From NCBI RefSeq assembly GCF_049316945.1, contig NZ_JBMOJE010000012.1:3752-67751 (forward strand): 64,000 nucleotides of DNA. The letters run 5' to 3'. Origin of the DNA: Propionivibrio sp. (GTDB lineage Bacteria > Pseudomonadota > Gammaproteobacteria > Burkholderiales > Rhodocyclaceae). Below, piece by piece: positions 10,248 to 44,403 of the stretch. Below the pieces are notes generated by a model, which made no database searches, was not told the DNA's origin, and saw only the letters and a program-made list of their open reading frames with translations. The position numbers and the translations under genes were made by a program. Every line of letters begins with the position of its first letter. The stretch's first letter is position 1.

Positions 10248-10257
10248 GGCAGGCCCC

Positions 10258-11181: not shown

Positions 11182-11308
11182 GATTGGATTCCTTTGTTTG
11201 TATGCCAATGGCGAGTACAAAACCGGTTTCACTAACTGTGGTTTTGTGAAACTGCTTGGCGAAAATGAAAGCGGCACGATTGCCGCTGGCGAGAACTGAC
11301 CGGGTGGC

Positions 11309-12103: not shown

Positions 12104-12131
12104 AAAAAGCCACTGCTCAGAGAGCAATGGC
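12104..12131 (-). terminator. Rho-independent terminator closing the long minus-strand operon
   Basis: The minus-strand RNA reads GCCAUUGCUC-UCU-GAGCAGUGGC-UUUUU. That is a 10-bp stem with one G-U pair, a 3-nt loop and a U5 tail, located about 155 nt after the stop at 12287. Confidence 0.7.
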
Positions 12132-12286: not shown

Positions 12287-13567
12287 TTACTTTCTCACCC
12301 CCTGCTGAATTTCATGCAAAGTTTTCGCGAGAGAGCCGGCCAAGTCAAGAAGCTTGGGGTCCGCGCCATCGTGTTTTGAATCGGTGTCCTGCTGCCCGAA
12401 ATACCTGACAGCGAATTCTCGTTTGACTTGGTTCCGCTCGCTATCGTCGAGAGTCGCCAAGAATGGGTCTATTGATGCCAGCTCAAGCTCGGCCTGCCGG
12501 AATCGTCGCTCGTTCTTCTGGTGACGAGTTACTTGCAGTGCGGCAAACCCCGCCAACAGAATGAACGGCATGGAAATCAAGGTCTGCCGAGCGACTGTGG
12601 CCCAAGTCAAATCCTTGTCATAAGTGAAGTAGAAGAAAACAACCCCGACAGTAATCCACAAGACCAACGACGAAGACGCCACACCCTTCCAAAGCGCCGC
12701 ACGAGACCGTTCCTCGTTTGCAGTCTTTTGGTAGCCATGCGCCATGCCCGTGTCGGTAATGATACCGATCAACTTTTGCGCATGCGCTTTGAGCCCTTCC
12801 ATCGTGTCGATGATGGATTTTGTGTCCTTGTTCAGTGACTCGATAACGGTCGCATGCTCTTTGGCAGCACCGGAGGCTGCATTCTCGGCAGCTTCAGCGC
12901 GTTGCTCTTCAGCTTCCTCGAACGAGGATTGTCTCTCCTGCTCTGCTTTTGCTGCGGACTGAACGCGGCTCTGCTCAGCAGTAGAGAACTCATTTTGGCG
13001 CAACTGTTGCGCATCGGAAAACTGCTGCTGAAACGTAGCAATAGCAGTATCCAATCGCTGCTTCTGTGCAGCAATCTCAGTCGTCGCCTCCGATATTCGC
13101 TTATCGAGTGCTGCCTGCGCTTTAGCTACTTCGTCGCCGTCGACTTTCAATTCGTTGAGGTAGGTTGCCGTAGCCGTCCGATAGCTCGCAGCAACCTCTC
13201 GCATGTCATCGATGCCGGACGCGCTCTGTCGCGGAATTGCAGCAAGTTGGGCAAGGCAGTTGTCGAGATGAGTCTGCGCGTTATTCCAGTGCGCCGCATT
13301 CTTGTTGGAGACAAAACCGCTGATTTCGGCGCGGGCCTGCTGCAGATACGTGGCTACGTTATTTAGATTGCCGATCACCACCAAGAGCGGGTCAGCCTGA
13401 TTGAAGACCGTTCTTACATGAGCAACGACCGCGTTGGCTCTATCCCAATGGGCGATGGTGGTTGCATCTTGTTGGCAGGCCTCATTCGCGGATTCCAGGA
13501 ATTTGCCGATTTCGGCCAGTTCCGTGAATACCTGATGGCTCTGCATGCGCTCTGCCCATTGGCTCAT
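12287..13567 (-). CDS. coiled-coil protein with two C-terminal transmembrane helices (426 aa)
   Basis: ATG 13567 lies behind AAGGGGGA, 42 nt after the DUF499 stop with no intervening terminator. A long Ala/Glu/Gln-rich helical region is followed by LVLWITVGVVFFYFTY and ISMPFILLAGFAALQV. It is the last gene before the terminator. Confidence 0.7.
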   Translation of the reverse strand: MSQWAERMQSHQVFTELAEIGKFLESANEACQQDATTIAHWDRANAVVAHVRTVFNQADPLLVVIGNLNNVATYLQQARAEISGFVSNKNAAHWNNAQTHLDNCLAQLAAIPRQSASGIDDMREVAASYRTATATYLNELKVDGDEVAKAQAALDKRISEATTEIAAQKQRLDTAIATFQQQFSDAQQLRQNEFSTAEQSRVQSAAKAEQERQSSFEEAEEQRAEAAENAASGAAKEHATVIESLNKDTKSIIDTMEGLKAHAQKLIGIITDTGMAHGYQKTANEERSRAALWKGVASSSLVLWITVGVVFFYFTYDKDLTWATVARQTLISMPFILLAGFAALQVTRHQKNERRFRQAELELASIDPFLATLDDSERNQVKREFAVRYFGQQDTDSKHDGADPKLLDLAGSLAKTLHEIQQGVRK

Positions 13568-13609
13568 GTTGTCCCCCTTACTTCCCGCCAAGCACTCGAA
13601 GAAGGTCCA

Positions 13610-16438
13610 TCACTCGCCGTCCTCGAACTCAGCATTCTTGAACCGCAGCACGTTGCAGTTCTCCTTCACGGCGCGCTGCAATCCATCGTCGAAGCCCGTT
13701 GCCGATTCGGCCTGAATCTCAATCGCGATCCTGACCTTCACGCCGGGGCGCGACGTGAATTGCAGAACGACCTCGTCGACAAGATCAGCAAACTGCTTCT
13801 TGGCCTGAATCGCGTCGAGTTCGATGCTGCCGTAGAACTGCTTTTTCGGCGTCTGCGTCGTTGCGCCACCACCCGTTGGATAGGTCGGCTTCGCGGAATC
13901 CTCCACACGCGACGAACTACCACCGGTAGCTGCTGCCGCCGTATCGGTCGGCTTGGGTCGCGCTGCCTCGTCGGCAGCGCGCTGCGCTTCGGCGTATCCG
14001 GCAGCGGTAACGGGTTCGATCAGGAGCAGCGATGCATCAAGGAATAGCGAGGTGCGCTTGCCATAGCTGAAGCCGAGGTAGCGACCATCCTCCTTGGCCT
14101 GCGCGAAACCGAAGAAGTCGCGGCTCTCGGCACCTGCGGCCAAGGTGTGCTGAAAGGCTGAGTCATCACGAAGCCGGGGCAGATACAGTTGCTGGCATGT
14201 CTGCTGCCACACGTTGAGGGCGAGGGTTTCCTTGGCGTCCTCTTTCCAGAACCACGTCTTGAGCACCGTCGCCAAGTGGATCGGCGCCCACTCGGTAATC
14301 AGGAGTTCGTTCTCCTTGAGCACGCGCTCGATTTCTTGCGAAAGGTTCTGAGCACCGGGATTGACGGGGAAATGCTCCCACTGAATATCAGACAGGCCTT
14401 TGCCCGGACGGGCTTCCTGCATCGGCGCCACGATCCATTTATAGGTCTCGCGGATCATGCGGCGCAGTGCCTCGTTGGAATCCTCAAGGCTCTTGCTGGC
14501 CTGCCGTGCCTGGAACTGATCGAGGTTGAGCTTCATCTCCTTGATGTCGCCGACGATGGACTGCCACGCCAAGGTCGAGCGCACCTGATCCTTTAGGCGG
14601 CTCACGCTGTCGTAGTCGGCGGCGATGAAAATCAAACGGTTCTGCTTGAAGCGCGGCTGGTCGCCACGGTTTTTCAGAATCTCGGTCGCACGGTCGATGG
14701 CAAGGCTTTGGCCGCTTCGGCTGAAGGCGGCATCGGGCGGCAACACGACAAGTCGCAATTGCCAGTCGTCGGGAATATCGCCGCTCGACGTGAAGACATG
14801 AATACCGCCGAACACGCCCGTCGCAAAGCTTTTCTGCACGCGGTCACGGATGGCGGGGAATACGTCTTCCTTGTCTTGGAACCGGCGCTTGCGCTCTTCC
14901 ATTTCGCGTCGCAGGTTGGGACGTGTATCGAACCAGAAACGATTGTTGCCGCTGTTCAGGTAGTGCAGGCGGTCGCCCAAACGGCGCAACGCGTCCTTAT
15001 AGATGCCGACTTGCTGGCCCGGTTGCGCCGCGCCCAAAATGACACGTTCCAGTTCAAGGCCACGCACCATCTGGCTTGCCGTAGTCGGCGCGCTGCCCAA
15101 AAAAATGGTCCGTGCCGAACGGCGGCAGGCCTGCACCGCACCAAGACGGGTATCTCGGTTTTCGATCTCGGTGGTCTCGGCGCGCTCGCCATCCACGTCG
15201 CGCTCTACAACCGGGTCCCAGCCTTGCGGCAGGTAATAGATCACCTCGTTACGGGTGTCGGCATCTTGCAGCGGGAAGCTGCCCGGCATGATGAGTGGGT
15301 CTTTATCGTTGTCTTTCCACAGGCGATGAATCACCTTCGCCATCAGCTTCAGGACACCACGGGTCCGCTGGAAGTTATCGAGCGACGACCAGTCTTCATA
15401 AAGTCGGTCAAACACCTCCGGGTGAATCGGGTAGGCGTGCATCAAGCGGTCAAAGTAGCGGCTCTCCTGCGTCTCGCGTGGGAAGTCCTCGCCGTTGGCC
15501 GTGTAGAAGTCGGCGAACGCACGACAGACCGATTCCGCAGCCAGCTTGTCGTCAATGCTGGAGAACAGCCGGCGGCGGACAATCTCGAATGCTTCCTCGG
15601 TGCCGACAGGTTTCCAGAGGGCTTGAATGCGCCCGAAGTAGTGGGCCAAGGCGGCAAGTGCTTTCACGCCGCGCTGGCTACCCGCTTCCTTGTCCGATTC
15701 GGGCAACGAGGCCAGCAGTACGGCGTTCGGAACCGCCTTTAGTGCCTCGGTCAGCGCCTGCACAAAACTCAGATTCGAGTCGAAGCTACCGCCCGTCAGT
15801 GCCTTACCTTCTTCAAACTGGCGCACATAGGCAACCAACTCGTCGATCAGGATCACGCAGGGCGCGTAACGGCTCAGCAGAGTTTCCAGTACCGCCTTGC
15901 CTGGAGAGGTGCCGGATGAATCGGCATCGGCGACCAGCGCATAGCCTTCGGCTTTTCCCAATTGCCACGCCAGATCGCCCCAAAGGGTGCGAATCGCCTG
16001 ACCGTCGCGCATCACGGGTTGATTGGGCGATGACTTGATGCCGTCAAGTACCGCAACACGCGCACGCGGCAGTTCCGTGACGCCAGCTGCGTCAAGAATC
16101 GCCGGCACGCCGGGCAAATCGCTTGCTGATACATCACCAGTCGCGAGGTGATAGACGGCCAGCATGGTGTGCGTCTTGCCGCCGCCGAAAGCGGTTTGCA
16201 ACTGAATGACCGGATCGCCGCCTTTACCAGACAAGCGCTTGACCACGGAATCGAGCAGCAAACGCATACCCTCGGTAATGAAGGTGCGCTGGAAGAACAG
16301 TGCCGGATTCTGGTACTCGGGCGTTGCCGTGCCTTCATGAACACGAGATAAGTCAGCGGCAAACTCGGCCTGCTGAAACGTGCCCTTGAGGACATCTTCG
16401 TGCGGAACGGCGATTTCGCGCCAGGGTTTCAGGGTCAT
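13610..16438 (-). CDS. DUF499-family (BrxC/PglY-like) P-loop ATPase
   Basis: [30 protein letters not shown] is the typical DUF499 N-terminus. Walker A is [11 protein letters not shown] and Walker B is [10 protein letters not shown]. The start overlaps the upstream stop (ATGA). Confidence 0.85.
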
Positions 16439-16650
16439 GTGTTTTCTCCACTGACTTGGTCCGGAAATGGCTTGGCAAACCGCACCATGCGCCCCAGACT
16501 TTTTTCGATTTCGGTGAAGCCACTACCGTACTCGTGCACCAATTGTTGCGACAGTGTCGCAACAAACCGTTCCCCGCAAACGACCTTCTTGTCATGCGGA
16601 ACTTCGCGACGAATGCGGCTCTGCGAATTCACGCCAGAGTTTGCCTTCAT
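16435..16650 (-). CDS. 71-aa fragment of a DUF1016 (YhcG-like) N-terminal domain, lacking the PD-(D/E)xK nuclease domain
   Basis: [39 protein letters not shown] matches the remembered YG-x-x-IVATLS-x-QL-x-x-EYG-x-GF ... RM-x-x-FA-x-x-FPD block of DUF1016 proteins. ATGA overlaps occur at both ends. It may be a remnant or a mini-protein. Confidence 0.5.
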
Positions 16651-17918
16651 CCCCTTTTCTCCGTACTTGCGGCATAGATCGTCAAAACCAACTCACTGTC
16701 ATCTTTCAATCGGTACTCGGGGCGCTTCCCGGAAAGTTGCTCGCTTCGCGCCAAAATGATCGCCACCCCTTCGCCACGCTTGTCCATGATGTGGCTGCGG
16801 TGGTTGACCAACATGTCATCGATGATCGGGCAGCGGGCCAGCAGGCTGGTCAGTGCCTCGTTACGCGCTGCCTGACGGTATGGCAAGCTCTCAGGAGTCA
16901 TCGTGTTTGGCAACATGCCTGGGGAATACAACTCCAGCCTATCGTCGAACAAGCGCAGTCGCACCTTCGCCCCCGCCATGGAGTAATCCCGGTGGGCCAC
17001 TGCGTTGGTCACGGCTTCGAACACGGCCAGCATGTCGAATTGAGGCACATCCTCGCGCCCGCCCTGCGCGTGCTTGTAGGCAGCCACCCTCATGTTTTTG
17101 CGAACGAAGGCGCATGCTTCGAGAATCTGCTGATCCAGTGGGCCGCTGATGTCCTGGGCATCCTGCTGGTAAGCAGAGTCACCCTCTGGCAGAGCGTCCG
17201 TGCCCTGATACGCCACGGCCTGGATGAAGGCACCCGGCAGGTGCTGCCGTGCCGTACGACTGCTCATGAGCAATCCAGCCACCGTAGGATGCCAGTCACT
17301 CTTGTCGTCACAGGCCGCCATGGCGAGCTTGTTCAACAAGATTTCCGGCGCATCGCTGCTGTTCATCGGCGCGAAGCGCCGCCAAAGCGCCTCGTCCAGA
17401 TCGGCCAGAGTGGCGCGAGTAACCGGTGTTTCGTCAAAACGAATCAAGCGGGATTGGCTGCGCTGCTGGAATAGTCGGGCCAGTTGATCCGGTGGAATCG
17501 GACGCTTGGACGAGCCGACACGATGAAGATAACCGCCCGGGCTTTGATGGACAAACAGACTGCGCTCCACTTCCAGCCGGAACACCGGTTGTTCCGTCCC
17601 CGCGAAGTCGGGTAACGTCATACGTTCGATGATGGGAGCCAAGGGCGGTTTGATCGACTGTTCGCACGCCTGCCTTACCACCAGCTCCACGGCGTCAAGG
17701 TGTTCGATGGGGATGCCGAGCACCTCCCGGCTGGTGTCTTCCACGCCTAGCAACAGGACTCCGCCCACACTGTTGGCGAAGGCAGCCAATTCGTCGGCCA
17801 GGGCGTCCTGAGACGGCCCCCTGACCTTGCCACCAGCGAATTTCACCTCCTTCAATTCGAGATAGCTGTCCTCACCAAGCCGGATTTTTTCCAGCAATTC
17901 ACTGCGTGTTGCCAACAT
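16647..17918 (-). CDS. AlbA_2 (Schlafen-like) DNA-binding domain protein with a C-terminal HATPase_c_4-like region (often annotated RecG-like/transcriptional regulator)
   Basis: MLATRSELLEKIRLGEDSYLELKEV is the typical AlbA_2 start. AVFEAVTNAVAHRDYS...LELYSPG is the HATPase_c_4-like block. ATG 17918 lies 1 nt after the upstream TGA with GGAGG as RBS. Confidence 0.8.
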   Translation of the reverse strand: MLATRSELLEKIRLGEDSYLELKEVKFAGGKVRGPSQDALADELAAFANSVGGVLLLGVEDTSREVLGIPIEHLDAVELVVRQACEQSIKPPLAPIIERMTLPDFAGTEQPVFRLEVERSLFVHQSPGGYLHRVGSSKRPIPPDQLARLFQQRSQSRLIRFDETPVTRATLADLDEALWRRFAPMNSSDAPEILLNKLAMAACDDKSDWHPTVAGLLMSSRTARQHLPGAFIQAVAYQGTDALPEGDSAYQQDAQDISGPLDQQILEACAFVRKNMRVAAYKHAQGGREDVPQFDMLAVFEAVTNAVAHRDYSMAGAKVRLRLFDDRLELYSPGMLPNTMTPESLPYRQAARNEALTSLLARCPIIDDMLVNHRSHIMDKRGEGVAIILARSEQLSGKRPEYRLKDDSELVLTIYAASTEKRG

Positions 17919-17919
17919 G

Positions 17920-20703
17920 TCAAACCTCCGTTCCCAGGCGCTTCCAGCGTCGGGCAAAAGCCTCGTGCCCACCTTCCATCACGCGACAGACCTCTCGACG
18001 CACCGAGGCCTCCTGCAACGAGCCACTTTGTTGCACAAAGCACTGTCCGCGACCGAACTCCATGATGTGCACAAGTTCAGCATCGCCATTGACGACCACG
18101 TTCGGGTTGTGGGTCACGACGATGAGCTGGCGGCGCAGTTTGTTCTCCCGAATCTGCCGAACGATCAGGTCATAGATCAGATGGTTGTCCAGGTCGTCTT
18201 CGGGTTGATCGAGTACGATGGGCTCCTCGCCAAACGCCAACAAGAAGGCCAGCAGAGCCGCCGAACGCTGGCCCTGCGAGCCTTGACTGATGGAAGTCCA
18301 ACGGCCATCGCGCTGATACTCAATCCGCAAATCGTCTTCCGGAAACCACGCCAGAACGTGATCGTCAAACTCTGGCTTATCACTCTTGCGCTTGAGATAG
18401 TTGCGGAAGTGCCCTCCCAAGGTGGCGTCTCCGTCCAGCAAGCGGCGTTTAGCCGCTTCGAGTGCACGGGTCTTGGTGGCCTCGTCCGCCTGTGCCAGAT
18501 CGAATGCCATCCCACCCGAAGGATCGCCGTCCTCCATCAAAAGGATGTCGTCAGCAAATCTTTCGTCCGTTACGTCGATCAATTCACGCAGATCGCGCTC
18601 GATCTGCCGCGCATCGAACCCAAAGGCAACGACCGCCATGCGGACATGGGGATTACCAGCCAATGCGTTCTCAATGAACAACTGGCGCGCCTGCGTGATG
18701 GCCTGTCGCTTTCGGGCCACGAGCGCCATTTGCGCTTCAATCTGCTGCAATAGCGTCACACGGTCGCTCTGCATCTGCTTCAGCGCTTTGTGTTGTGCTT
18801 CCAGTTGTTGGCGTTCTTGAGTCAAGCGAGCGAAGGCCTGGGGGTCGTTCACTCCTTGCTGTGCGAGTTGCTGTTGCAGCGCGGCATGCGCCTGCTGTGA
18901 CGCCTGGACACGCGCCTGCCATTGCACAAACCGAGCATCCTTTGGTTGGGATTCACCGAGGGCAAAAAGCTTGCGCGCCTGTTCGAGGATGCCAATACGG
19001 ATCTGCTCGACCTGCTGATTGATCTCTGCCCGCCATGCCAGCAAACCAGCATCCTGTTCGGTGAAATGCTGGCTGGACCAATCATCCAGCACGATGAGTT
19101 CGGGCAACTCGGCAATACGAGTCGCACCATCACGCAGTTGTTCGAACAGCGTCTTGACTTCCCTGCTTTGGTGCTGCGCTTGTGCGTAGGCGCGCAGTAC
19201 CACTGCATGGTCGGTCTGCGACAAGGCAGCCAGCTTTTTCCCGGCCTCATCCAGCTTGCGCTCGACCTCCGCCTGCCCGGCCAGCTTGCCGTTTAACTCG
19301 CGCAATCGAGCGCGCTGCGTGAAGAAAGTGCGTTTCGCTTCTTCAACGGATTGCTTCAGCGGATCGACGTTGGCCGCTTCGTCGATGATGGAGAGCAGCG
19401 TCTGCCGTCCGCCGCCCGCCAACGCCGCAATCTGCCCTTGGGAAAAGATACGTAAGGGGAAACGCGCCGCATTCACACTCTGGCTGGACGATGCATGCCA
19501 TTGTCCTGCTCGCCATTCCTCGACTGCGATGTATTGGCCTTCGGGTTGCCATCGTAAACGAAGGCGCGCGTCTTCATGCTGCCATTCCAAGCCGATAGTA
19601 GTATTCGAGCGCAAGGCGCCTTTATCGTCCCGGCCATTGGCCGACTTGCAAAACGCTGCAAACTGCGCCGTTGGTTCACTCCCTTGGCCCAGCGCCACCA
19701 ATTCCTGTTCACGCCGCGCCGCCAGTCGGAGGGCGTGTACCACGGTAGATTTGCCCGTGCCACGGCCACCAACCACCGCATTGAAAAACGGAGAGCAGGC
19801 CAATCGTGCTGGCTGCCCATTGCCCATGTAGCGAGCCTGCCCGACCTCGATGGCTGTAATGATGTGGGTTGGCACCCGGAAGGGGTCAAAAGCGCCCTCG
19901 TCACTACGCCGAATCGACACGCCATTGCCATCCAGCAAGGCCAGCCGTAGCCCTTCCAGCGTTGGCGATGCCATCTTGACCCAAGTGTAGCGGCTGCCGG
20001 GAACAGCAGCCCCTTGGAAGCTGTGGCAATCGCTGCCGAGTACGCGAGCAAAGCGAGATTCGTCTTGCGCAACGCATTGCGGCCATGGCATCGACGTGTC
20101 GCACCACTCCACCGCTAGCCCCCCTCCGACCGCAATGGCCTGACGCAACGTGTTGCTGTCGAACTGGCTCTGGCTGGTCCCCGGTCGGCATTGCAGCAAA
20201 CCCTTGGCTTGGTCAGCGTGAGCAGGAATTGCAACGGCTCCGGTCGCCTGGATAGCGCGAATCACCTCGGCGATACCCATGCTGGTTACGCCGTCGCTGT
20301 CTCCCTTAGTACCCTGATAATCGACTCGGCCCAACAGGGTGTCGATGTCCCCGGACGTCGCTGCGGGATCGAAGAGAGCTAGCACGTGTACCCCACCGTT
20401 GGCCGAGATTTCCACTCCAGGAAAGATCGTCAGCTCCCGAAACCCAGCAGGCACCGGACCTGCGTTGGCCTGCTGCTTCATCGTTGCGTAGGCCGATTTG
20501 AGCCGGTCGATCCACGCGCCACTGTTGTGATCGGTCACCGCCACACAGTCAATCTCTTGAGCCATGTACTGTCGCAACCAGTCTGCCTCGGTTAACGTCA
20601 GATTCTGCTGATGCCAGGGCGTATCACGCGAGGCTGGTGTATGGGTATGGAAATCGAATTTCCACCAGCGCGAACCCGGGTACGGCCACTCCATCGTTGC
20701 CAT
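17920..20703 (-). CDS. PHP phosphoesterase domain fused to an SMC/Rad50/ABC-type ATPase with a long coiled coil (Ppl/TrlF-like)
   Basis: PHP motifs are KFDFHTHTPASRD, AVTDHNS, IPAHAD and GSDCHS. Walker A is GGRGTGKST. About 250 aa of Gln/Ala-rich coiled coil follow. The signature and Walker B read SQGQRSAALLAFLL...IVLDQPEDDLD. ATG 20703 lies behind AAGGGGGA. Confidence 0.85.
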   Translation of the reverse strand: MATMEWPYPGSRWWKFDFHTHTPASRDTPWHQQNLTLTEADWLRQYMAQEIDCVAVTDHNSGAWIDRLKSAYATMKQQANAGPVPAGFRELTIFPGVEISANGGVHVLALFDPAATSGDIDTLLGRVDYQGTKGDSDGVTSMGIAEVIRAIQATGAVAIPAHADQAKGLLQCRPGTSQSQFDSNTLRQAIAVGGGLAVEWCDTSMPWPQCVAQDESRFARVLGSDCHSFQGAAVPGSRYTWVKMASPTLEGLRLALLDGNGVSIRRSDEGAFDPFRVPTHIITAIEVGQARYMGNGQPARLACSPFFNAVVGGRGTGKSTVVHALRLAARREQELVALGQGSEPTAQFAAFCKSANGRDDKGALRSNTTIGLEWQHEDARLRLRWQPEGQYIAVEEWRAGQWHASSSQSVNAARFPLRIFSQGQIAALAGGGRQTLLSIIDEAANVDPLKQSVEEAKRTFFTQRARLRELNGKLAGQAEVERKLDEAGKKLAALSQTDHAVVLRAYAQAQHQSREVKTLFEQLRDGATRIAELPELIVLDDWSSQHFTEQDAGLLAWRAEINQQVEQIRIGILEQARKLFALGESQPKDARFVQWQARVQASQQAHAALQQQLAQQGVNDPQAFARLTQERQQLEAQHKALKQMQSDRVTLLQQIEAQMALVARKRQAITQARQLFIENALAGNPHVRMAVVAFGFDARQIERDLRELIDVTDERFADDILLMEDGDPSGGMAFDLAQADEATKTRALEAAKRRLLDGDATLGGHFRNYLKRKSDKPEFDDHVLAWFPEDDLRIEYQRDGRWTSISQGSQGQRSAALLAFLLAFGEEPIVLDQPEDDLDNHLIYDLIVRQIRENKLRRQLIVVTHNPNVVVNGDAELVHIMEFGRGQCFVQQSGSLQEASVRREVCRVMEGGHEAFARRWKRLGTEV

Positions 20704-20714
20704 GTCTTTCCCCC

Positions 20715-23651
20715 TTAAATATCCAAGGCGCCCTGCGAGCCGACCAAACCGGCGTCACCGGCAGACTGCTCAATGCTGGACCACGCCGTCACCAACTCGT
20801 TATAGGCGCGGGCCTCTTCGGCCCAGCCTTTGCGCTCGCAGAGTGTGTAGAGGCGGTAGGCCAAAGCTCGCATTGGTTCGGCACGTGCAGGCATGCGGGC
20901 CAGCAATGCACCGGCAGCGGATTCGCCCTGGCTGTTGAGTGCACGAATCAGTTGGTGCAGAGCCTCCCAAACAGGTGTGCGCGTATCGGTCTCGGGGCTC
21001 CAGTCGGCAGGCAATTCAGCCCAGCGCAGTAGGCGCAACTTGCCGGCACCGCTCTCGATCACGCCCGCATCCTGCAAACCGCCGACGCTGGTGCCTTTGG
21101 CGCGGGCCAACACGTCAGCTTCACCGTACTTGCCCTCAGCCCAACCCAGCGACTCAAACCAGTGCAGGCAGAACTGCGTGTCGTGGTCGAAATCATCCTC
21201 GGCAAAGAAGCGATTGATAAGTTGCAGCGCGGTACGCACGCTCATCGGTTTGCCGTCAGCTTCGAGAACGGCAGCGTACTGGCTGAAGATCGCCATGCCG
21301 GGGCCGATGATGGCCTGCGACAGATCGACCGGAGCAACTGGCGAATTGACGCCGCCACGGGTCATATCAAGCAGAGCTTCGGGCAGGTGAGAATTGAGTT
21401 CGCGCAGAAATTCGCGGCGGCTGACCGTGAGGGCATCGGTGGCGCGTTTTCGGCAGACGAGGACGATACTGGAGGCGAGTGCGTTGGTGCCGGAGCCGAT
21501 CATTCGGTTGCTGAGTTCGGTACGCATCGGCCAAGTGCCGGTCAAGGCAAAGCCAGCGCGAAGAACCGCATCAAGAAAGGTTTCCCAACCTGTACTGTGC
21601 GTCCCAGCTTCACCCTTAGTCTCGGCTTGCTTGAATGCGTAATAGATTGTCACCGGGAAAGCGCCATGAGCTTGTTCGGCCAGATTACGCATCGCATGCG
21701 TCATGCCATCAAGGAAGAATATTTCCGCTTCCTCTTTGCCGCCGTGGCGGTAAGAAGTGGCGACCAGTTCCTCAGCCTTCGGCACAGCCAGAGTCGCATA
21801 CAGGCTAGGGAAAATTGGTTTCAGACTCCTGCGTAACCACACGTAAAAGAAATCTGAGAGGTCGGCATAACCAATGTTGTCGTAGTACGGGGGGTCTGTA
21901 GAAACGACTTTTGCAGTACTGATAGTTTGGGTTTGGGCATCGGATTGCTCGGCATAGCCACGAGCCTGAGTCGGCATAAGTTGCAGCGCTTTATAGGCCC
22001 AATCGATCCCGCTGCTCACATTACCCGTTGAGTCAGAAAATGGATTTGTTTCCGCATAGTCCCAAGTCATGGGAATGGCTTGTCGTCCGAAGGTGTTGCG
22101 AATCAGATCTTTGCTGGAATGCCAAGTACAAATCGACGACCAGTAGTCGGACGCTTTGTCTATGGAGAAAGCCAAAAACACTCCGATTGCCTGCGCATAC
22201 GCCGTCGCGCCAGCGCCGACTTTGTCGAGCGGGAGGTCGTGGTCGAGCGCTGCGGCGGCATCAGGCCGATTTTTTTGCAAGTTGTCATTGCGCTCCCAGG
22301 TTGCAAGAGCGTCCTGCCGACAGCGCTCTATAGCCTCGGACACTAGGTCGGAAAGTGTTGTCAGCGCGACTAGCTGACGCGACGTGAAGAGGTCGCCCCA
22401 TTCCGTCAAGCCGTAGGGCACACATGTGCCGCCAGTCAGACGCGCCGGGACATTGCCCGAAGGTTTCCATGTGGGCTTCGCTAGCAAAGGGACGGTTTCG
22501 TGCTCGACAGTCGGCGCCAGATAAATGCGGCCACGCACACCTTCTGCCACAATCGCCATCAAACGAGCCCCCATTCGACCCGCTTGGCCTTCTGCCTTTA
22601 TATAGTTGCCGCTAATCGGGGTTTGCGATAACACGCAGGCGAAGTTGGCTCCGCGCCCAGGGGCCTTAGTGCCGTCAATTGCCTTGGCGGTTGGGGCTCC
22701 CGTTTTCACAGTGAAGCGATAGCAGTCCCCATCCACCACTGGCTCGACATATGCTTCCTTACCTTCCTTGCTAGACAACACGAAAGTTGAGACCAGCGGC
22801 ACTTCTGCGTGACTGAAAGCCGGATTAGGGCTTTTTACTGTTCGAGCCCATAGCCAAGCAATGACCGTCAACTTCTGCCCAAGCAAAGGCTTGAGGTCAG
22901 GACGCTCGGAAACTATCTCTGCCGTAATTTCTAATTTCGGATAAAGATGACCGATGCGCTTTTTTGCCTCAGACCTCATCCAATCGCCATAACGCCGAAC
23001 GTCCTCGGCCAGCCCCCGCGCACCCGCCCAATCCTCACTCAGGCTGCCTTGTTGGTCACCGGCCAGCCTTGGCCCGACTGGTGCGCGACCGGCAAAGCGC
23101 GGCGGGATTTCGATCATCGCTTTGTTGATTGTCACCGCCACCGGATTGAGGTCGCTGGCGTAGCTTTCTAGCCCCAAGCGCTGCGCCTCCAACGGCAACG
23201 CACCACCGCCAGCAAAGGGATCATGGAAGGCCGGCAATTTGTCTGGGTTGAACAAGTCAGCCGCCTGCGGATGCCCCTTGTTCAGCTCACAAGTCTCGCG
23301 CCAACTGCGCACGATTTCGGCACGCGCACGGGACAGCACCTCCTCGTTGTTGGTGTTCTCCCAGAGAACGAGGTCCTCGATGATCTTGAACAGCCGCTCG
23401 CGCTCGATAGCGGCCTTTTCCTTGTTCACACCGTACTTGAAGCCGCCGCCTTGCTGGTAGCCGGGATCGTTGACCATCTGCGCGAAGATCACTGCACGTG
23501 CTGCCGCAAGCGGACGTCGCGCCCACCACAAATGCAACGTGCTCGGGTGGCCGTGACGAATGGACTTTTCTTTTGCCGCTGCCACGTTAATGGCATCAAG
23601 CGGTAGGGCGACTTCGATAAGCTTCTTTGGAGTTTTGATGGTCGTGGTCAT
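20715..23651 (-). CDS. DUF1156-family DNA methyltransferase (DPPY type, N6-adenine or N4-cytosine)
   Basis: The N-terminus [45 protein letters not shown] is the DUF1156 hallmark. The SAM motif is [10 protein letters not shown] and the catalytic motif is [22 protein letters not shown]. The start overlaps the upstream stop (ATGA). Confidence 0.9.
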
Positions 23652-24352
23652 TTGTTTTCCTGCTGCTTGCTGCCTTTTGTTTTGTTGGTGCGAGGCGGGC
23701 GCTTGGGCGTAGCCGCAGCTAATTCCTTGGCCTTTTCTTCCAAAACTTCCGCGTGAATCACTCGCTCTACGATATCTATGACGGTGTTCAATGAGTCGGC
23801 AGTCGGTTGATGTCCTCTATGCATTGCGGCAGAGCCTGCCTCAAATGCAGCCTCAATAATAGGGCGTTCTTGTATGCTCAAAAGATTCGCATTTTGCAAA
23901 GCATCGAGACCCGCAACAAAACTGCCGTGATCCCCAATCTTTTTGGAGATCGCTTTGTCGATGATCGACCTTGCTCCCATCATTGCCAATCGCCTGCTGT
24001 CGGCGTGCAATGCGGTATAGACCTCATCGAGTAGCCCGTGATAACCCGGAGCCTCTCGCCGCAACAGCCAATCAGGTTTTCGCCTGGAGACTCGTGGAGG
24101 GAAATACGTCGGGGTATATCCATCCTGCGGGTCATCCTCTGAGCACCAGTCGATTCGACTCATGGCAACCTCGTTGCATCCGCAGCATTGCAGAATCCGC
24201 CAGTTGGTGCCCACCGAAACCGTGCATCGGTCTGCGTCAAAATCGCGTGATCTACGGATCAGTTTCACGACTTTGTGCAAAGTTTCTTGGCAGCATTCAT
24301 TGCAATGCGACCAAATCGGGGGCTCCGTTTTTGCTCTCGTGCCACTGGTCAT
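23648..24352 (-). CDS. zinc-ribbon plus DUF4145-like protein (234 aa) with a basic C-terminal tail
   Basis: CNECCQ...CCGCN gives a four-Cys ribbon. The helical C-terminal region ([24 protein letters not shown] ... AAMHRGH) resembles the DUF4145 domains found in R-M loci. ATGA overlaps occur at both ends. Confidence 0.65.
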
Positions 24353-27300
24353 AGCGCACTTCCGGGTTTGATGGATCGCTTCAGCAGTTCTGGCAAGTCA
24401 AGATTAATGCTGGTCACCGCCCAATCTGGTTCCTGCGTAAAAGGCGTGGACACGTAATACGGACCTTCGTGGTGATCGCCATCGACGATGACTATTGCCA
24501 GAATGAATTTGTCCTGCTGATTGAGGCCATAGAGGATTTCATTGCGGGTGACGGTAATCGTGCTTTGCCCCTTGGCGCGACCCTTGACCTCAATGTGTCG
24601 TGATGCGGGCAGCTTGCCGTCGATGGCCCTTGGCAGGCTCGTTACGTCCCAGCCACATTTCTGCGCCGATACGTCGATAACTTCATGCCCGAGTGCGCGC
24701 TCGGCATCCATCACGGCATTCATGGCGATCCACTCGACGCGTGCACGCGCATCGGCGTCGGCGCTCCATCCCGGTTGGCCTTTGCGTTGTGCCAGCAAGC
24801 CTGCCGGAATGACCAGCGCACCGCCAGCCACCACGGGTGTAGCCGAGATAACGTGGCGCATGGCGAGGAGTTCCTTTTCACGCGACTCCCGGCGTGCGGT
24901 CAGATCGTCAATTGTGCGGCGGACGTTTTCGAGCGTCAGGCGAACGTCTTTGCCGGCAGCCATGTCGTCTCCGAGCTTGATGTAGCGATCCGACCAGTAG
25001 TTGATTTCCTTGACCAGACGTTCGTGAACCGCATTCAAGGTCTTGTCGACGTGCTTTTCGCGCCGGCTTCGCACCTCGTCGAAATGTTCGGGCACGAGAT
25101 GCGTCGAAGCATGCGCCAGTGCCTGCTGTTCAAGGTTTTGCGTGATCCACGGCGCGGCAAGCACGTCTTCGATCAATGCAACGTCTGCCTTGTCGATGGG
25201 TTCAAGGTCGAGGTGAGGTGCCCAGCCGGCGTTAATTGCGCCGCCTTGCGGATCGATCTCGACGAACTGCATGCGCCGGGAGACGACGTGCGTCAGGTCG
25301 GCGCCTTCCTTTACGGAGTGGTCGATGATGAGCATGACCTTGGGCGTAATACCCATGTCGCTTGAGTCGACGAGGATTGCACCCTGCTTCAGCTTGTTGC
25401 GGTGCTGCTCCATCACAATGTCAGTCACCGACTGCATCAAGGGATGGCCGGGGTGCATCAGGCTCGCCATCGGTGCCCCGATCTTGTCGGCCACGCGGAC
25501 GAACTGCTTCTCGAAGCAGACGCGCTCATAACGGCGCAGCACCGGGTCGGCGTTGCGGCGATCCCGGCCAGTGATTTGCCGATCACGTTCGCGGATATTG
25601 GCCGGAACGTGGGTAATCTCGTAGCGGCCCTGCTCACGTGGCCGCAGTTCGCCACCCAGTCGTTGGAATGCCTGATTGAAGAATGAGCGGATGAAATAGG
25701 GCTGAAGCTTGCGCGCTTCGGCCTTTTCCATTTCCTCCTTGACGGCGAACAGGCGGCGCTCGTCCATCACTTCTTCGCATAAGGCGTTGCGCTTGATGAT
25801 GGTTTCGAGATGCTGCGTATCCAGCGCGCCTTCTACTTTGCGATGCAAGCGGGCACGAATCTCGGGGTCGTCGCCGTAGCGGATGGCTTCGATCAACAAA
25901 TCTTTGAGGCTCTTGTCCTCGAACACTTCGCCGAGAATGTCGAACACGCGACCGCCCAGTGCCTTGCGCTCGACTTCCAGTTTTTCAAAGAGGCGCTGAA
26001 AAACATCGCCTTCGCGGGTCTCGGCGGCGACCATGTTCCAGAGGTGGCATACCTCGGTCTGCCCGATACGGTGGATACGTCCGAAACGTTGCTCAAGCCG
26101 GTTCGGGTTCCACGGCAGGTCGTAGTTAACCATCAGGTTTGCGTTTTGGAGGTTCACGCCTTCGCCTGCCGCGTCGGTCGCCAGCAGCACCCGAGTGGAA
26201 GGATCGTTGCGAAATAGCTCCTGCACCTTGCGGCGATCTTCGCGTTTGACGCCGCCGTGGATCATAACCACGGATTCCTCATTGCCGATCAGGCCGCGAA
26301 TCTTGACGGCGAGGTAATTCAGCGTGTCCCGGTGCTCGGTGAAGATGATGAGCTTGCGCTGGCGACCATCGGCATCACGCATCTCCGGTGTGTTCTGGAG
26401 CAGCTTGGAAAGCTCGTCCCATTTGCGGTCTTGGCCGGAATGGACGACTTGCCGTGCTTGTTCCTCCAAGCCTTCGAGGATGATGATTTCGGCTTCGAGT
26501 TCCTGAATCGTTTGGGCGGCGGTGGCCTGATCGACGACGGCTTCCTCGAAGTTTTCGTAGTCATCCGGCGATAGTGCGTCGGCTGATTCCCAAATGTCGT
26601 CCGGTACGTTGTTGAAGGTAGTCGTGTTAAGGGTTTCAGCCAGCGAGTGCCCACGCTGGCGCAGCTTCTCGTCTTCTACACGGCGCTTGAGCTTGGAACT
26701 GCGACGCCGCAGTGACTGGTAGATCGCTTCCGGGCTGGAGGCCAATCGACGTTGCAAGGAAGTGAGTGCGAACCCGACCGTGCCCTTGCGTGCGCCATCC
26801 TGAAGCTGATCGGCGCGGTTCATTTCCTCCTTCACGTAGTCCGTGACGGCGGTGTACAGCGCGGCTTCGGGGTCAGATAGTTTGTAGTTGGCGGTGCGTG
26901 CCCGGCGCTCAGGGAACAGGGGCGAGCCATCGAACTTGAGCAGGTCTTCCTTGACCATCCGGCGCATGAGGTCGGTCACATCCACCTTGTGCGCGCCATC
27001 GCGGAACTTGCCGTAGAAACGGTCGGAGTCCAGCAGCGACATGAACAACTGGAAATCTTCCTCCTTGCCGTTGTGGGGCGTGGCGGTCATTAGCAGGAAG
27101 TGACGGGTAATCGACCCCAGCAACTCGCCAAGCAGGAAACGCTTGGTCTTATTGACCTTGTTGCCGAAGTAGCTGGCCGAGAGCTTGTGCGCTTCATCGA
27201 CGACGATCAGGTCCCAATGCGACAGGCGCAGCTTTTCCTGTAGGTCTTCGGCGCGGGACAGTTGATCGACGCGGGCAACCATCAGGTCGATGTCGTCGAA

Positions 27301-27885
27301 GGGGTTGCCGCTGCGCGACTGCTCAACCTGCTCGCGGGAAAACAGCGTGAAGGACAGGCCGAACTTCTCAAACATTTCATCCTGCCACTGCTCGACCAGA
27401 CTGCCGGGAGCAACGATCAGGACGCGCTTGGCGTCGGCACGCATCAGCAGTTCGCGGATGAACAACCCGGCCATGATCGTTTTGCCCGCACCGGGGTCGT
27501 CTGCCAGCACGTAGCGCAAGGGCTGGCGCGGCAGCATGGATTCGTACACTGCGGTGATCTGGTGCGGCAGAGGTTCGACGTTGGAGGTATGAACCGCCAT
27601 CATCGGGTCGAACAAGTGCGCGAGATTGATCCGATAGGCTTCGGCGGCGAGCTTGAATTCCTCGCCGGGTGCATCGAATGCCCACGGACGGCCAGCTTCG
27701 GCCAGCGACAGGTTTGCCTCGTCGGTGCGGAAGAGCATGCGCTCAAGCAGCTTGCCGTCCGGGGTCTTGAAATAGACGGTGAGGGCGTTGTCGCCGACTG
27801 GCTCTGTCGTGACGACGCGAACAACATGCCCCGGCTCGATACCGGAGATGGCTGCATTTTTCTTGATGTCTTCGAGTTTCAGCAT
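24349..27885 (-). CDS. SNF2-family helicase with a C-terminal DUF3883 (restriction-endonuclease-like) domain
   Basis: The helicase motifs are DDPGAGKT (I), VVDEAH (II), MTATPHNG (III), [11 protein letters not shown] (V) and [11 protein letters not shown] (VI). The C-terminal GWDVTS...RHIEVKGR...ILAIVIV is DUF3883-like. ATG 27885 lies behind GGAGA, 2 nt after the WYL gene's stop. The 37-codon extension in the ORF track is rejected. Confidence 0.9.
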
Positions 27886-27887
27886 GG

Positions 27888-28781
27888 TCAGGCTTTCTCC
27901 GGCTGTTCGTACCCCGGCGCCAACAACAGGTTGGTCACGCCGTAGAGGGCTTGCCGGTTGCGCAGCCAAAGGTGGAATTCGGACCCGCGCAGGCAATGGT
28001 TTTCGGTGCAGTCAACATTCCAGCGACGCACCAAGTAGCCGGCGAGCGCTGCGCGAACCAGCACCTTGAGTTGCCCGTCCTCCATGCCGTACTCGGCCTC
28101 GATGGTGTCGGGGTGCTGGACGTTGGCGGGGTGCGGAACTAGTTCGAGGTCAACGATGCGATTCCATTGATTGTCGCGGTCCGAGGTCTCGTGCTCGCCG
28201 ATCTCGCTGCTTAGTGCCTTGGCGTCGGCGATGCGTGCCAGTACGAAATCGCGGAATTCGCCGCTGCGACGATCAAATGCCCGAACGTGCCAGCGCTGTC
28301 CGTTGTCGGCCAAGGCGAAGGGCACGATCTCGCGTGTGGTCAGGCCGCTGGTCAGCGCACGGTAGGAAATCTCGACCGGTGATTTGCTGTAGATGGCCCG
28401 CGTAACCACCGAAAGGGTATCGAGGTCAATCTTGCTCGATACGACCATCGGCTCGCAGGGAAATGGCGAGCGGAGGCGCAGCGGCTCGGCATCGCCGAAT
28501 CCTTGCGACAGCCAGGTCAGGATACGGTCTGCCGAGAAGTCGAACACCGGACGGAACCATTCGCCACAGCGATACGCCTTGCTCTTGGCGTCGTAGTCGA
28601 GGTTGCGCGGTGCCAAATCCTTGTATGCGCCGAGGTCGCGTGTCGCTGCCGCCGTTTGAATACCGAAGCGTGAAACGAGGTCTTGACGACGAAACTCCCC
28701 GACGAAGCGAAGACGCAACTCGATGAACGCGAGGCGGTCACGCTGAGATTGGGTAAGTTCCGACAGTTGCTGAGTGGTCAT
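27888..28781 (-). CDS. WYL-domain transcriptional regulator (BrxR/CapW-like)
   Basis: An N-terminal wHTH-like region ([29 protein letters not shown]) is followed by the WYL core [35 protein letters not shown]. It is the first gene of the operon. Confidence 0.85.
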
Positions 28782-28819
28782 GCTGGTTGGTCTCGCGGCA
28801 GTTAACTGGTAGCTTATCC

Positions 28820-28847
28820 GCGCCTTATTGATAAGTCAATAAGGCGC
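28820..28847. promoter_or_regulatory. Perfect 12-bp inverted repeat GCGCCTTATTGA-TAAG-TCAATAAGGCGC; candidate operator of the WYL regulator
   Basis: Read directly from the sequence. It lies 39-66 nt upstream of the WYL start (28781) in the 98-nt gap after the preceding gene. No U-run follows on the minus strand, so a terminator is unlikely. Confidence 0.5.
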
Positions 28848-28879: not shown

Positions 28880-29569
28880 TTACGTCGAACCAGAGAATGC
28901 GGCGATTAGGCTTTTAACGTCTGTAGCGATTTGGCGATCCAGCGCGTCGAAGACATCAAACATCGGGGTGTCGTCTCTGTAGCGGTTGAACCATTCTTCG
29001 TTTGAGAAGGGCATCACCAAGTCTGCTTCGCGCTGAAGACGGTCAATTGCGGCATCGGCCCTGCGGTTACGGACGCCCTCATACTCGAAGGGCGTTACCA
29101 CGGCGGCAACCGTCACTGCCCCGGCATCACGGGCTGCACGCGACATGATCGGCGTAATGCCGCTACCGGTCCCGCCGCCAAGCCCGGCGAGCAGAACGAC
29201 CATGTCGGAACCGGTGAGCAATTCCGCCAAGACGGCCCGATGGCGAAAACAGGCTGCGCGTGCTGCATTGACTCGTCCGCCAGCACGGACCGGCGCGAGC
29301 ATCAGCGTCTTGATCGGTGCCAGCGCAGGATTGGCATCGTTGGCAATATCAACGAACTCCAACGCGTGCGGGCCGAGATCGATGCAAACATAGCTCAGTG
29401 CCACACCCGCTCGATCCAGAATGTTGCTCGCACGCAGCGCAGTGACAAGGTTGCATCCAGCGGCACCGATACCAATGATCTTGCATGAGGGTGCTGGCGA
29501 TGCGAAAGCGGGAAGACTCAGGCTGGCAATACCAGCGCCGAACGTTTGCAGGAAAATCCTGCGATTCAT
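28880..29569 (-). CDS. FtsZ/tubulin-like GTPase domain only (229 aa) with an N-terminal Tat-like signal peptide
   Basis: CKIIGIGAAGCN corresponds to the FtsZ G-box 1. GLGGGTGSG is the tubulin signature. VVTPFEYEG corresponds to FtsZ VTKPFxFEG. The protein ends right after the H7-like helix, before the T7 loop. The N-terminus MNRRIFLQTFGAGIASLSLPAFA matches the twin-arginine pattern. The RBS is GAGGGA. Confidence 0.75.
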   Translation of the reverse strand: MNRRIFLQTFGAGIASLSLPAFASPAPSCKIIGIGAAGCNLVTALRASNILDRAGVALSYVCIDLGPHALEFVDIANDANPALAPIKTLMLAPVRAGGRVNAARAACFRHRAVLAELLTGSDMVVLLAGLGGGTGSGITPIMSRAARDAGAVTVAAVVTPFEYEGVRNRRADAAIDRLQREADLVMPFSNEEWFNRYRDDTPMFDVFDALDRQIATDVKSLIAAFSGST

Positions 29570-29596: not shown

Positions 29597-29836
29597 TTAC
29601 CAGTTGGCGAGTACCTCCTCGTCAGTGGGCGCACCTTGTTTGAATTTCGGAGGCGCGTCGTCTGCGGCGTAACCCGCATGAACGTCGCGCTCCTTGACAG
29701 GACGAATGACAATGTCCCCGGCGTCGGTGAGCCGCACAAACAAGTAATCGCCGGGACGCAGCCCGGTGCGCTCAATCACGTACTGGGGCAGGCGTAATCC
29801 CAGGCTGTTGCCCCACTTGCATAGTTTCGTCGGCAT
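29597..29836 (-). CDS. AbrB/MazE/SpoVT-family DNA-binding protein (antitoxin-like, 79 aa)
   Basis: MPTKLCKWGNSLGLRLPQYVIERTGLRPGDYLFV is the swapped-hairpin signature (WGNS-x-x-x-R-x-P). ATG 29836 is chosen, so the 31 extra codons in the ORF track are rejected. The gene ends 27 nt before the FtsZ-like start. Confidence 0.75.
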   Translation of the reverse strand: MPTKLCKWGNSLGLRLPQYVIERTGLRPGDYLFVRLTDAGDIVIRPVKERDVHAGYAADDAPPKFKQGAPTDEEVLANW

Positions 29837-29949
29837 GGCAGTTCGATAACCTCGCTGATAATCAATGGCTATCAAATTGCCAATCCGGGGTTCCTGAACA
29901 GATAGGCGTAACCGGCCTTGACCATGCACCGGTTACGCTACCGTCGGCC

Positions 29950-30871: not shown

Positions 30872-30892
30872 TGACGGTATCGGTGACGGTAT
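30872..30892. repeat. Two direct TGACGGTAT copies (candidate attR / right-end binding sites)
   Basis: TGACGGTAT is at 30872-30880 and 30884-30892. CGGTGACGGTAT at 30881-30892 is identical to 1538-1549. Weaker similarity continues on both sides (ATTG..CAT..GTTG upstream, ATTGC..TAC downstream). Confidence 0.5.
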
Positions 30893-44212: not shown

Positions 44213-44403
44213 AGGGCCTCCATTGCTATGAAATTATTAACGGCCAGATATCACGCAAGCTTTAATCGAGTTGGTGCCCAGAAAACAGAAATGTTGATGG
44301 TCGGTAATTTCTCCGGCGAGCGATCGTCGTGTGCCCGTTAAATGCGAACTAAAGGGGTCACAATCGCATTTTTCCGTGAAATATGAATGCCGTGCTGGCC
44401 TTG

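Follow-up and report, generated by a model that had tools for sequence, protein, structure and literature searches.

An Hma (Type-1 BREX-related) operon of Propionivibrio sp. with apparently independent nested defence modules

The stretch of DNA analysed here (64,000 nucleotides of contig NZ_JBMOJE010000012.1 from Propionivibrio sp., assembly GCF_049316945.1), which is called the window below, contains nine consecutive, co-oriented open reading frames (ORFs) on the minus strand, G1 to G9 in the direction of transcription, between positions 12287 and 28781. All are intact, with a single start and a single stop codon each and without internal stops. Sequence comparison makes it very probable that this operon is an Hma (helicase, methylase, ATPase) locus, a restriction-modification-like (R-M-like) operon that is also known as the Type-1 bacteriophage exclusion (BREX)-related (BR) system, and that it carries independent mobile defence modules and has a BrxR-type regulator in front. 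An earlier note on this DNA had taken the same genes for a single nine-component system whose composition and gene order were undescribed. The claim of one system is not borne out, as the add-on genes are separable across related loci. That of novelty fails for the core, which is Hma, and stands only for the exact combination of cargo genes.

Identity of the core

Three of the ORFs form the core. G2, or HmaA (24349-27885, 1178 residues), is a SNF2 helicase with a C-terminal NOV_C/DUF3883 nuclease domain of the PD-(D/E)XK type; G4, or HmaB (20715-23651, 978 residues), is a DUF1156 DNA methyltransferase of the N6-adenine type; and G8, or HmaC (13610-16438, 942 residues), is a DUF499 AAA+ (STAND/ORC-like) ATPase that lacks an N-terminal HEPN fusion. 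Since the PADLOC models of HmaA, HmaB and HmaC match these proteins over their full length (G2 with 2154.7 bits, residues 1-1174 of the 1176-position model; G4 and G8 end to end, with 1768.8 and 1589.7 bits), the core is, by sequence, the already named system Hma. Pfam finds SNF2-rel_dom, Helicase_C and NOV_C in G2, DUF1156 in G4 (3.3e-31, 107.7 bits) and DUF499 in G8 (6.6e-34, 117.3 bits). The DUF499/DUF1156/SNF2-DUF3883 core of the earlier note is confirmed by both Pfam and PADLOC, and its reading of the core as R-M-like is upheld. Pattern searches located GAGKT132, DEAH230, TAT267, QRFGRIHR599 and D1080...E1099-V-K1101 in G2, DPFAGGG144 and DPPY586 in G4, and the Walker B motif ILIDE196 in G8, the P-loop of which reads AFGGGKTH.

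That such a gene set had been flagged before in comparative genomics was correctly stated in the earlier note: DUF499 AAA+ proteins were described in R-M operons with a SNF2 helicase fused to DUF3883 (Anantharaman 2013, PMC3710099). Hma was named as a candidate system in 2021, in 26 phyla (Payne 2021, PMC8565338), and a later description gave it the second name 'Type-1 BREX-related system' (Rakesh & Krishnan 2026, PMC12839542). E. coli that carries an HmaA homologue of Halomonas is protected from T4, and this protection requires the PD-(D/E)XK nickase domain of the protein (Liu 2024, PMC11232893). By the rule of Payne 2024, the three genes lie on one strand, each occurs once, and at most three embedded genes separate neighbours; in the window one ORF separates hmaA from hmaB, and three ORFs, namely G5, G6 and the relic G7, all on the minus strand, separate hmaB from hmaC.

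The window shares with Hma the same three-protein architecture, the co-oriented A-B-C order and the nesting of foreign defence genes in between, and it differs only in the combination of its cargo, which consists of a RAZR-like G3, a TrlF-Schlafen pair, a DUF1016 relic and the trailing G9. Its BrxR gene is coupled to hmaA by a gap of 2 nt. HmaC of the window is without the HEPN fusion, which the 2026 survey found in 1,370 of 2,446 Type-1 taxa (PMC12839542).

Judging from what is known of these families, HmaB would methylate host DNA at a specific motif and thereby mark it as self, while HmaC, a BrxC-like AAA+ ATPase, would survey DNA and assemble or license the restriction complex. HmaA would translocate on unmodified DNA and nick or degrade it by means of its C-terminal PD-(D/E)XK domain. 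The roles of HmaB and HmaC could be approached with this locus, a question which is not newly raised here.

Separability of the added genes

The remaining genes surround and interrupt the core. G1 (27888-28781, 297 residues) encodes a WYL transcriptional regulator of the BrxR/CapW family. G3 (23648-24352, 234 residues), embedded between hmaA and hmaB, combines a Cys4 zinc ribbon with a HEPN-like DUF4145 domain in a RAZR-like architecture. G5 (17920-20703, 927 residues) is an embedded TrlF-family/Ppl-like protein with a PHP phosphoesterase and an ABC (SMC-like) ATPase, and its partner G6 (16647-17918, 423 residues) joins a Schlafen (AlbA_2) nuclease domain to a minimal histidine-kinase-like HATPase_c_4 domain. 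G7 (16435-16650, 71 residues) is the relic of a DUF1016/YhcG (PDC-S02) nuclease gene and forms an ATGA bridge from G6 to hmaC. G9 (12287-13567, 426 residues) is a lineage-specific helical-bundle protein with a long coiled coil and two transmembrane (TM) segments. The extra nuclease and membrane components of the earlier note are therefore present. All of the domains that it had named were recovered by Pfam across the nine proteins (WYL; SNF2/Helicase_C with NOV_C, i.e. DUF3883; DUF4145; DUF1156; AAA_21/SMC_N; AlbA_2 with HATPase_c_4; DUF1016_N; DUF499), and its motifs, including the two TM helices of G9, were recovered by direct pattern search.

The nine ORFs do not appear to be one system, because G3, the G5-G6 pair and G9 occur without Hma and vary between near-identical Hma loci. 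Species-representative genomes were searched with HmaB, and 80 loci were returned, the best with 80% identity (single loci are cited below by L numbers). The nearest Hma relatives are from Imbroritus, Zoogloea and Thauera, and the WYL cluster of the window has a member from a metagenome-assembled genome of Candidatus Accumulibacter. While nearly all of the 80 loci keep the A-B-C order, more than 300 nt separate A from B in 36 of 54 loci and B from C in 40 of 66. The add-ons of the window are sporadic in this set: G5 together with G6 in L010 and L063, G6 alone in L012, G3 in L025 and L042, and the WYL gene in seven loci. The insert counts agree with those published, as embedded genes were reported in 62.7% of 1,485 Hma systems (Payne 2024, bioRxiv 10.1101/2024.01.29.577857) and in 66.5% of Hma systems (Liu 2024, PMC11232893). 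Embedded genes were co-oriented in 96.7%, and most of the embedded cassettes that were tested proved to be active defences (Payne 2024, bioRxiv 10.1101/2024.01.29.577857); Ppl is among the systems embedded in hma of Halomonas (Liu 2024, PMC11232893). The nesting of defence genes inside Hma is a published pattern, and the operon is one more, unusually well-loaded case of Hma/BR-1 with nested defence genes, ordinary for specialists, and not a new nine-part machine.

A near-identical locus with other cargo is found on the metagenome contig L093, in the order HmaA, a 354-residue gene, HmaB, a full-length DUF1016/YhcG gene, HmaC, a 42-nt gap and a homologue of G9. Over the compared span of the window (12287-26457), the two loci share 94% DNA identity between the start codon of hmaC and the stop of G9 and 92.5% in hmaA, whereas hmaB reaches only 78-79%, with its central (presumed target-recognition) region unaligned, and no DNA similarity is seen over the cargo. 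Similarity changes abruptly at the start codon of hmaC and close to the 3' end of hmaA, where the breakpoints lie, and hmaA, hmaC and G9 show no frame disruption relative to L093. Because the ends are near-identical, hmaB is divergent and the cargo is unrelated, the middle block of methylase and cargo seems to have been exchanged while the hmaA and hmaC-G9 ends on either side were conserved. It appears that the methylase, and with it the specificity, was swapped together with the cargo, and the comparison provides a concrete view of such a joint exchange.

A trace of cargo turnover is also present in the window itself. G7 scores 29.8 bits against Pfam DUF1016_N, under the cut-off of 32.8, and 8.6e-13 against PADLOC PDC-S02, and it aligns to residues ~42-95 of full-length DUF1016/YhcG genes of 355-360 residues. 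Full-length DUF1016_N + YhcG_C genes lie directly ahead of hmaC in L004 (14484-15551) and L093 (6051-7133), where they meet hmaC by the same ATGA overlap as G7 does; the PD-(D/E)XK C-terminal domain is absent from G7. The DUF1016-N fragment listed in the earlier note does exist, but it is by comparison a dead remnant of an earlier cargo gene and not a functional component. Set against its full-length relatives, the relic points to turnover of cargo at an hmaB-hmaC hotspot.

As modules of their own, G3 and G5-G6 would act as a stand-alone second line of abortive or backup defence and not as subunits of Hma, and they would gain co-regulation from the host operon. The operon packs five putative defence layers into 16.5 kb behind a single promoter and a single BrxR-type regulator. 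It is thus a compact natural construct, which lends itself to testing if nested modules work on their own or as a backup to the methylation-based system that hosts them.

Alternative readings

Several points weigh against an Hma operon with independent modules. In the study of Halomonas, HmaA protected alone, and a host expressing HmaB left phage infectivity unchanged, with no detectable protective modification of T4 (Liu 2024, PMC11232893). Methylation-dependent discrimination by Hma itself is unproven, and the methylation logic is only inferred. No canonical Rx4-6H motif is evident in G3, which makes an RNase activity uncertain, and no PADLOC model matches G3 except PDC-S70 at 7e-4. G5 scores 517.5 bits against the Ppl_antiphage equivalog (NF042955), under its cut-off of 1000. 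The tight translational coupling, including the bridge of G7 between G6 and hmaC, could reflect functional integration. An alternative is that all nine ORFs are one integrated, novel methylation-based system, in which the PHP, Schlafen, HEPN-like and membrane parts would be obligate effectors or sensors of the Hma core. It is favoured by the co-orientation and translational coupling of all ORFs, by the single promoter-like region and single strong terminator, and by the co-regulation that the published 96.7% co-orientation of embedded genes permits. However, every add-on is found without Hma and Hma is found without every add-on, near-identical L093 carries different cargo, G7 is a truncated relic and G9 is missing in 80 of 80 Hma loci, and we consider an integrated system very improbable.

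An operon that sits in an island with an integrase, AlpA and a DUF3631 protein, between ribE and ribBA, might also be decayed or silent cargo that is inactive in its host, or an R-M-like addiction element that stabilises the island of ~29 kb. The decay of G7 and a BrxR-type repressor that may hold the operon off are in keeping with silence, yet of the nine ORFs eight have their full length and intact catalytic motifs, and an independent metagenome locus matches hmaA, hmaC and G9 at 92-94% identity without frame disruption; inert or merely stabilising cargo is therefore very improbable. The methylation-associated defence system (MADS; mad1-8 of Pseudomonas aeruginosa SMC4386), which the earlier note had suggested, likewise is a large methylase-containing operon of similar size, with an N6 methylase and a proposed methylation-based discrimination. 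The only PADLOC mad hits of the window both fall on the ABC ATPase G5, a weak and partial one to mad3 (8e-18) and a marginal one to mad8 (0.007). No match to mad1, 2, 4, 5, 6 or 7 is found at E<=0.01 in the nine proteins, MAD6-8, which are mandatory in the authors' model, were not detected in them, and the models that the methylase, helicase and ATPase match over their full length are those of Hma. Membership was rejected on these PADLOC results and on the authors' MAD6-8 definition, and the locus is almost certainly not MADS or a MADS-like operon.

The cargo modules

Phage defence is known for Ppl, for RAZR and for some bacterial Schlafens. Within the Hma operon with its nested modules the G5-G6 pair is the part with the most residual novelty. 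G5 matches the NCBIfam model TrlF_fam_ATP (NF045780) across residues 10-924, where its 605.6 bits exceed the cut-off of 350, and PADLOC Ppl over its full length with 444.5 bits. Pattern search located its HxH motif (H19-T-H21), Walker A (GGRGTGKS312), signature (SQGQ809) and Walker B (IVLDQPE829). With Ppl (Gao et al. 2020) G5 shares the PHP + ABC ATPase architecture and a full-length alignment, but it passes the TrlF cut-off and not that of the Ppl equivalog, and it is coupled to a Schlafen-histidine-kinase-like gene.

The product of that gene, G6, contains the Pfam domains SLFN_AlbA_2 (1.3e-13) and HATPase_c_4 (1.3e-19). Its Ex4ExK motif, EDSYLELK at residues 16-23, is intact and agrees with the Schlafen definition Ex4(E/D)xK, and its sequence matches in the PDB are Schlafen 8, 11, 12 and 14. 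No PADLOC model captures G6 as a system component. At least 1,017 taxa are reported to have a Schlafen joined to a minimal histidine kinase beside BREX and BR cores, and no other Schlafen architecture is as common in bacteria as AlbA_2/Schlafen with HATPase (Taboada et al. 2025 preprint; Rakesh & Krishnan 2026). G6 resembles the described proteins in having AlbA_2/Schlafen with Ex4ExK followed by HATPase_c_4, whereas the representatives for which the preprint showed protection (a DUF262-Slfn fusion and RorSlfn5) differ in architecture or origin.

The two genes travel together. Relatives of G6 (Schlafen matches) were compared in 25 metagenome loci, and in 22 of these a G5-type gene stops 4-5 nt before the relative; a gene annotated as TrlF abuts the G6 match in at least 24 of the top 30 plasmid matches. 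The pair occurs at the same spacing inside Hma in L010, L063, L098, L103, L116 and L119. It also stands alone, on a plasmid of Burkholderia thailandensis (50% and 64% identity, with an identical 1-nt gap) and on plasmid pPsv48B of P. savastanoi, and on the IncC plasmid pNDM102337 it lies within a type I R-M operon (hsdR-TrlF-Slfn-hsdS-AAA-hsdM). In L114 it lies between a methylase and a ResIII helicase, and in other metagenome loci it adjoins other defence-like genes. The comparison of the pair drew on L010, L063, L087, L089, L090 and L096-L120.

It is possible, though we hold it only tentatively, that G5-G6 is a distinct, unnamed two-gene defence module, an ATPase sensor with a Schlafen effector and a conserved 1-nt gap between their genes, that prefers modification-based hosts. 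Such a module would nest in Hma, type I R-M and methylase-helicase operons, and it could guard these host systems against anti-restriction. A pairing of the G5-G6 type was not found described in the literature searched, where 'TrlF' turned up only spectroscopy papers; Krishnan et al. 2020, on ABC ATPase conflict systems, may already contain a Schlafen-ABC linkage, and the novelty of the pairing is therefore only putative. As a coupled module the pair is widespread, including on clinically relevant IncC plasmids, and current defence-finding models split or miss it.

G3 matches Pfam DUF4145 (3e-09, 37.2 bits). Its cysteines C17, C20, C56 and C59, in the motifs CNEC17 and CCGC56, are invariant in 41 homologues, as are the polar residues H116, D118, R128, D132, H178 and R179; R120, R121 and H181 are conserved in at least 90%. 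The AlphaFold2 (AF2) model (predicted local distance difference test score, pLDDT, 83.8) has a beta-rich N-domain and a helical C-domain, and its top fold matches in the PDB are the HEPN toxins 7ae8 and 7ae6, with probability 1.0 but a weak E of 8e-3. RAZR, or PD-T7-4, is a zinc-finger + DUF4145 RNase that is activated by ring-shaped phage proteins, with R146 and H154 as catalytic residues (Nature 2026, PMC13017515). G3 shares with it the N-terminal Cys4 zinc ribbon, the C-terminal DUF4145/HEPN-like helical domain and a similar size, but neither a detectable sequence match to the PADLOC PD-T7-4 model nor an evident Rx4-6H motif. Single-sequence and profile searches of PDB chains likewise gave no match. 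An assignment of G3 to RAZR by sequence was dropped, as the PDB searches were empty and there is only a weak likeness to HEPN folds. Because there is no sequence-level link and no evident Rx4-6H motif, G3 is best described as RAZR-like in design and not as a member of RAZR.

Counterparts of G3 occupy the same position between hmaA and hmaB in L025, L042 and L092, the last with the order BrxR-HmaA-G3-HmaB-HmaC, and a homologue stands alone, without Hma, in a Ralstonia island (L091). The public annotation appears to call G3 as a protein of 171 residues, which would lack the first CxxC of the zinc ribbon. The start that gives 234 residues is supported by the conservation of H16, C17, N18 and C20 in the 41 homologues.

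G9 is a weaker element than the G5-G6 pair. It belongs to no Pfam or PADLOC family beyond weak coiled-coil noise, and its ~90 homologous clusters are all hypothetical or carry only generic automatic labels. Hydrophobic segments were located by pattern search at residues ~296-315 and 328-346. The AF2 model is all-helical, with a single helix of ~158 residues (116-273), and has no meaningful fold match in the PDB apart from helical-bundle noise. Homologues follow hmaC with the same 42-nt gap in L093-L095, and none is present in the 80 Hma loci of the genome scan; by these comparisons G9 travels with hmaC only in this narrow lineage, and it was rejected as a component of Hma. Other homologues (46-63% identity) lie after a DndC/DndD-like cluster, at the end of a P2-like prophage and beside a PhdYeFM-PIN toxin-antitoxin pair. 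In L083/L084 (2686-9272), a homologue with 62% identity begins 3 nt after a cluster of PAPS_reduct (DndC-like), SMC_N (DndD-like), 515-residue and 113-residue genes; hence the G9 family also trails a second kind of DNA-modification-type operon. Our best guess is that G9 is a membrane-anchored accessory or an independent effector, and its family could be a new membrane-associated accessory of DNA-modification defences.

Regulation and operon boundaries

BrxR-family proteins are known to co-localise with defence systems. G1 has the Pfam domain WYL (1.9e-12) and matches the WYL domain protein of PDB entry 7QFZ over its full length (phmmer, 8e-85), and it also matches the CapW structures 9c5g, 7tb5 and 7tb6 and the BrxR structure 7t8k with values from 4.8e-39 to 2.2e-21, so that its reading as a WYL regulator of the BrxR/CapW type is upheld. 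Homologues of G1 precede hmaA in seven of the 80 loci (L001, L003, L005, L006, L016, L017 and L053) and also in L092, where the homologue has the domains WHD_BrxR, WYL and BrxR_CTD.

Upstream of G1 lies a candidate promoter and operator on the minus strand (28811-28847). The 12-bp inverted repeat reported for this region is perfect, consisting of GCGCCTTATTGA and TCAATAAGGCGC at 28820-28831 and 28836-28847. It overlaps a -35-like element, TTGACT (28839-28834), which is followed by a spacer of 17 nt and a -10-like element, TAAGCT (28816-28811). The geometry TTGAC(G/T)-17 nt-TA(T/A)G(C/A)T recurs upstream of the WYL gene in L001, L003, L005, L006 and L017; the sequence of the inverted repeat is not conserved in these five relatives. 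A scan with the sigma-70 consensus gave no qualifying promoter upstream of G1, and the site at 28811-28847 did not pass it; the promoter was judged by direct reading and by comparison with relatives. G1 resembles the known BrxR/CapW regulators in its full-length homology and in its place ahead of defence genes whose promoter region carries an inverted repeat, while the predicted operator repeat of the window differs in not being conserved in related loci. By analogy with the BrxR family, G1 would probably repress the operon by binding the inverted repeat over the -35 element.

The nine minus-strand genes and all eight of their junctions were confirmed by direct reading of the sequence. ATGA overlaps join G2 to G3, G3 to G4, G6 to G7 and G7 to G8, and gaps of 2 nt and 1 nt separate G1 from G2 and G5 from G6. 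G5 is preceded by an 11-nt gap with AAGGGGGAAAGAC and G9 by a 42-nt gap with GTAAGGGGGACAAC, both of which are purine-rich, Shine-Dalgarno-like runs. This tight coupling would let every module share one promoter.

The hairpin that had been noticed after the last gene was likewise confirmed by folding and by its U-tract. It is a terminator-like structure of the intrinsic type on the minus strand (12104-12131), with a 14-bp stem followed by the U-tract UUUUUGCGUUU, and its folding energy is -20.7 kcal/mol (z = -4.69), with none of 200 shuffled sequences being equally stable. A simple terminator scan of the region did not list this hairpin, which was judged by direct reading and folding. The scan gave 19 weak terminator-like sites in the region, where shuffled sequence would give 19.3, and therefore no terminator inside the operon stands out.

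Relation to other defence systems

Annotation tools place the core, G1, G5 and G6 in existing named families, which largely amounts to the outcome by which the earlier note would have given up its claim of a new system, namely that such tools assign the genes to known ones. Other named systems were compared with the window besides Hma. The Type-2 BR system (HKD/PLD-helicase + DUF1156 + DUF499 + DUF3780) follows the same logic of DUF1156, DUF499 and helicase, and the window partly matches the PADLOC models DUF499, DUF1156_MTase and PLD_Helicase. However, it is without a PLD/HKD nuclease and without DUF3780, its nuclease being the C-terminal PD-(D/E)XK domain of the helicase. Matches to the NCBIfam 'anti-phage-associated' models NF042962, NF042963 and NF042964 of Type-2 BR are partial (207, 114 and 178 against 1200, 1000 and 1100, respectively). 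Type-2 BR was rejected, as the scores are far under the cut-offs and there is no PLD domain or DUF3780.

The helicase of the window is related to BrxHII of BREX type 3 and to DrmD of the defence island system associated with restriction-modification (DISARM), with 317-411 bits in PADLOC, and the window resembles these systems in being R-M-like with a BrxC-like ATPase, an N6 methylase and a BrxR-type regulator. Neither Pfam nor PADLOC finds PglZ, BrxA/B, BrxL, DrmA/B/C or DrmMI/II among the nine proteins, and the DrmD equivalog scores 381 bits against the helicase, below its cut-off of 610. BREX type 3, DISARM, Dpd and Zorya were all rejected, since the helicase matches are partial and under the curated cut-offs and the partner genes are absent. 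A search of plasmids for near-identical DNA found none, the best match being 73.5% identical and confined to the helicase region.

Genomic setting

The operon lies within an island of ~29 kb (1465-31041) that splits the riboflavin cluster between ribE (844-1464) and ribBA (31042-32169), which is followed by ribH and nusB. The island also contains genes for a P4-type integrase (1540-2823), AlpA (2814-3380), a DUF3631 protein (3714-5537) and a second integrase-like, tyrosine-recombinase-like protein of 339 residues (10258-11277). A 14-bp direct repeat, ATCGGTGACGGTAT, which may represent the att core, is present at both island ends (1536-1549 and 30879-30892). The island junction is free of tRNA genes; the only tRNA gene in the window is tRNA-SeC (anticodon TCA) at 44403-44490 on the minus strand.

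Ten flanking island genes gave no defence matches in PADLOC. Just upstream of the operon and on its strand, 28880-29569 encodes a protein of 229 residues that contains a Tubulin/FtsZ GTPase domain and has an N-terminus of hydrophobic, signal-like character, and further upstream on the same strand 29597-29929 encodes a protein of 110 residues with a MazE-like antitoxin domain; PADLOC matches neither. On the other side of the operon, the region 8649-11277 encodes a HATPase_c_3 protein of 578 residues, which has weak PADLOC matches to REase_II and TmtA and overlaps the 339-residue recombinase-like ORF by ~130 nt, and an Exo_endo_phos protein is encoded at 7805-8557. The HATPase_c_3, recombinase-like and Exo_endo_phos ORFs are possibly other cargo of the island.

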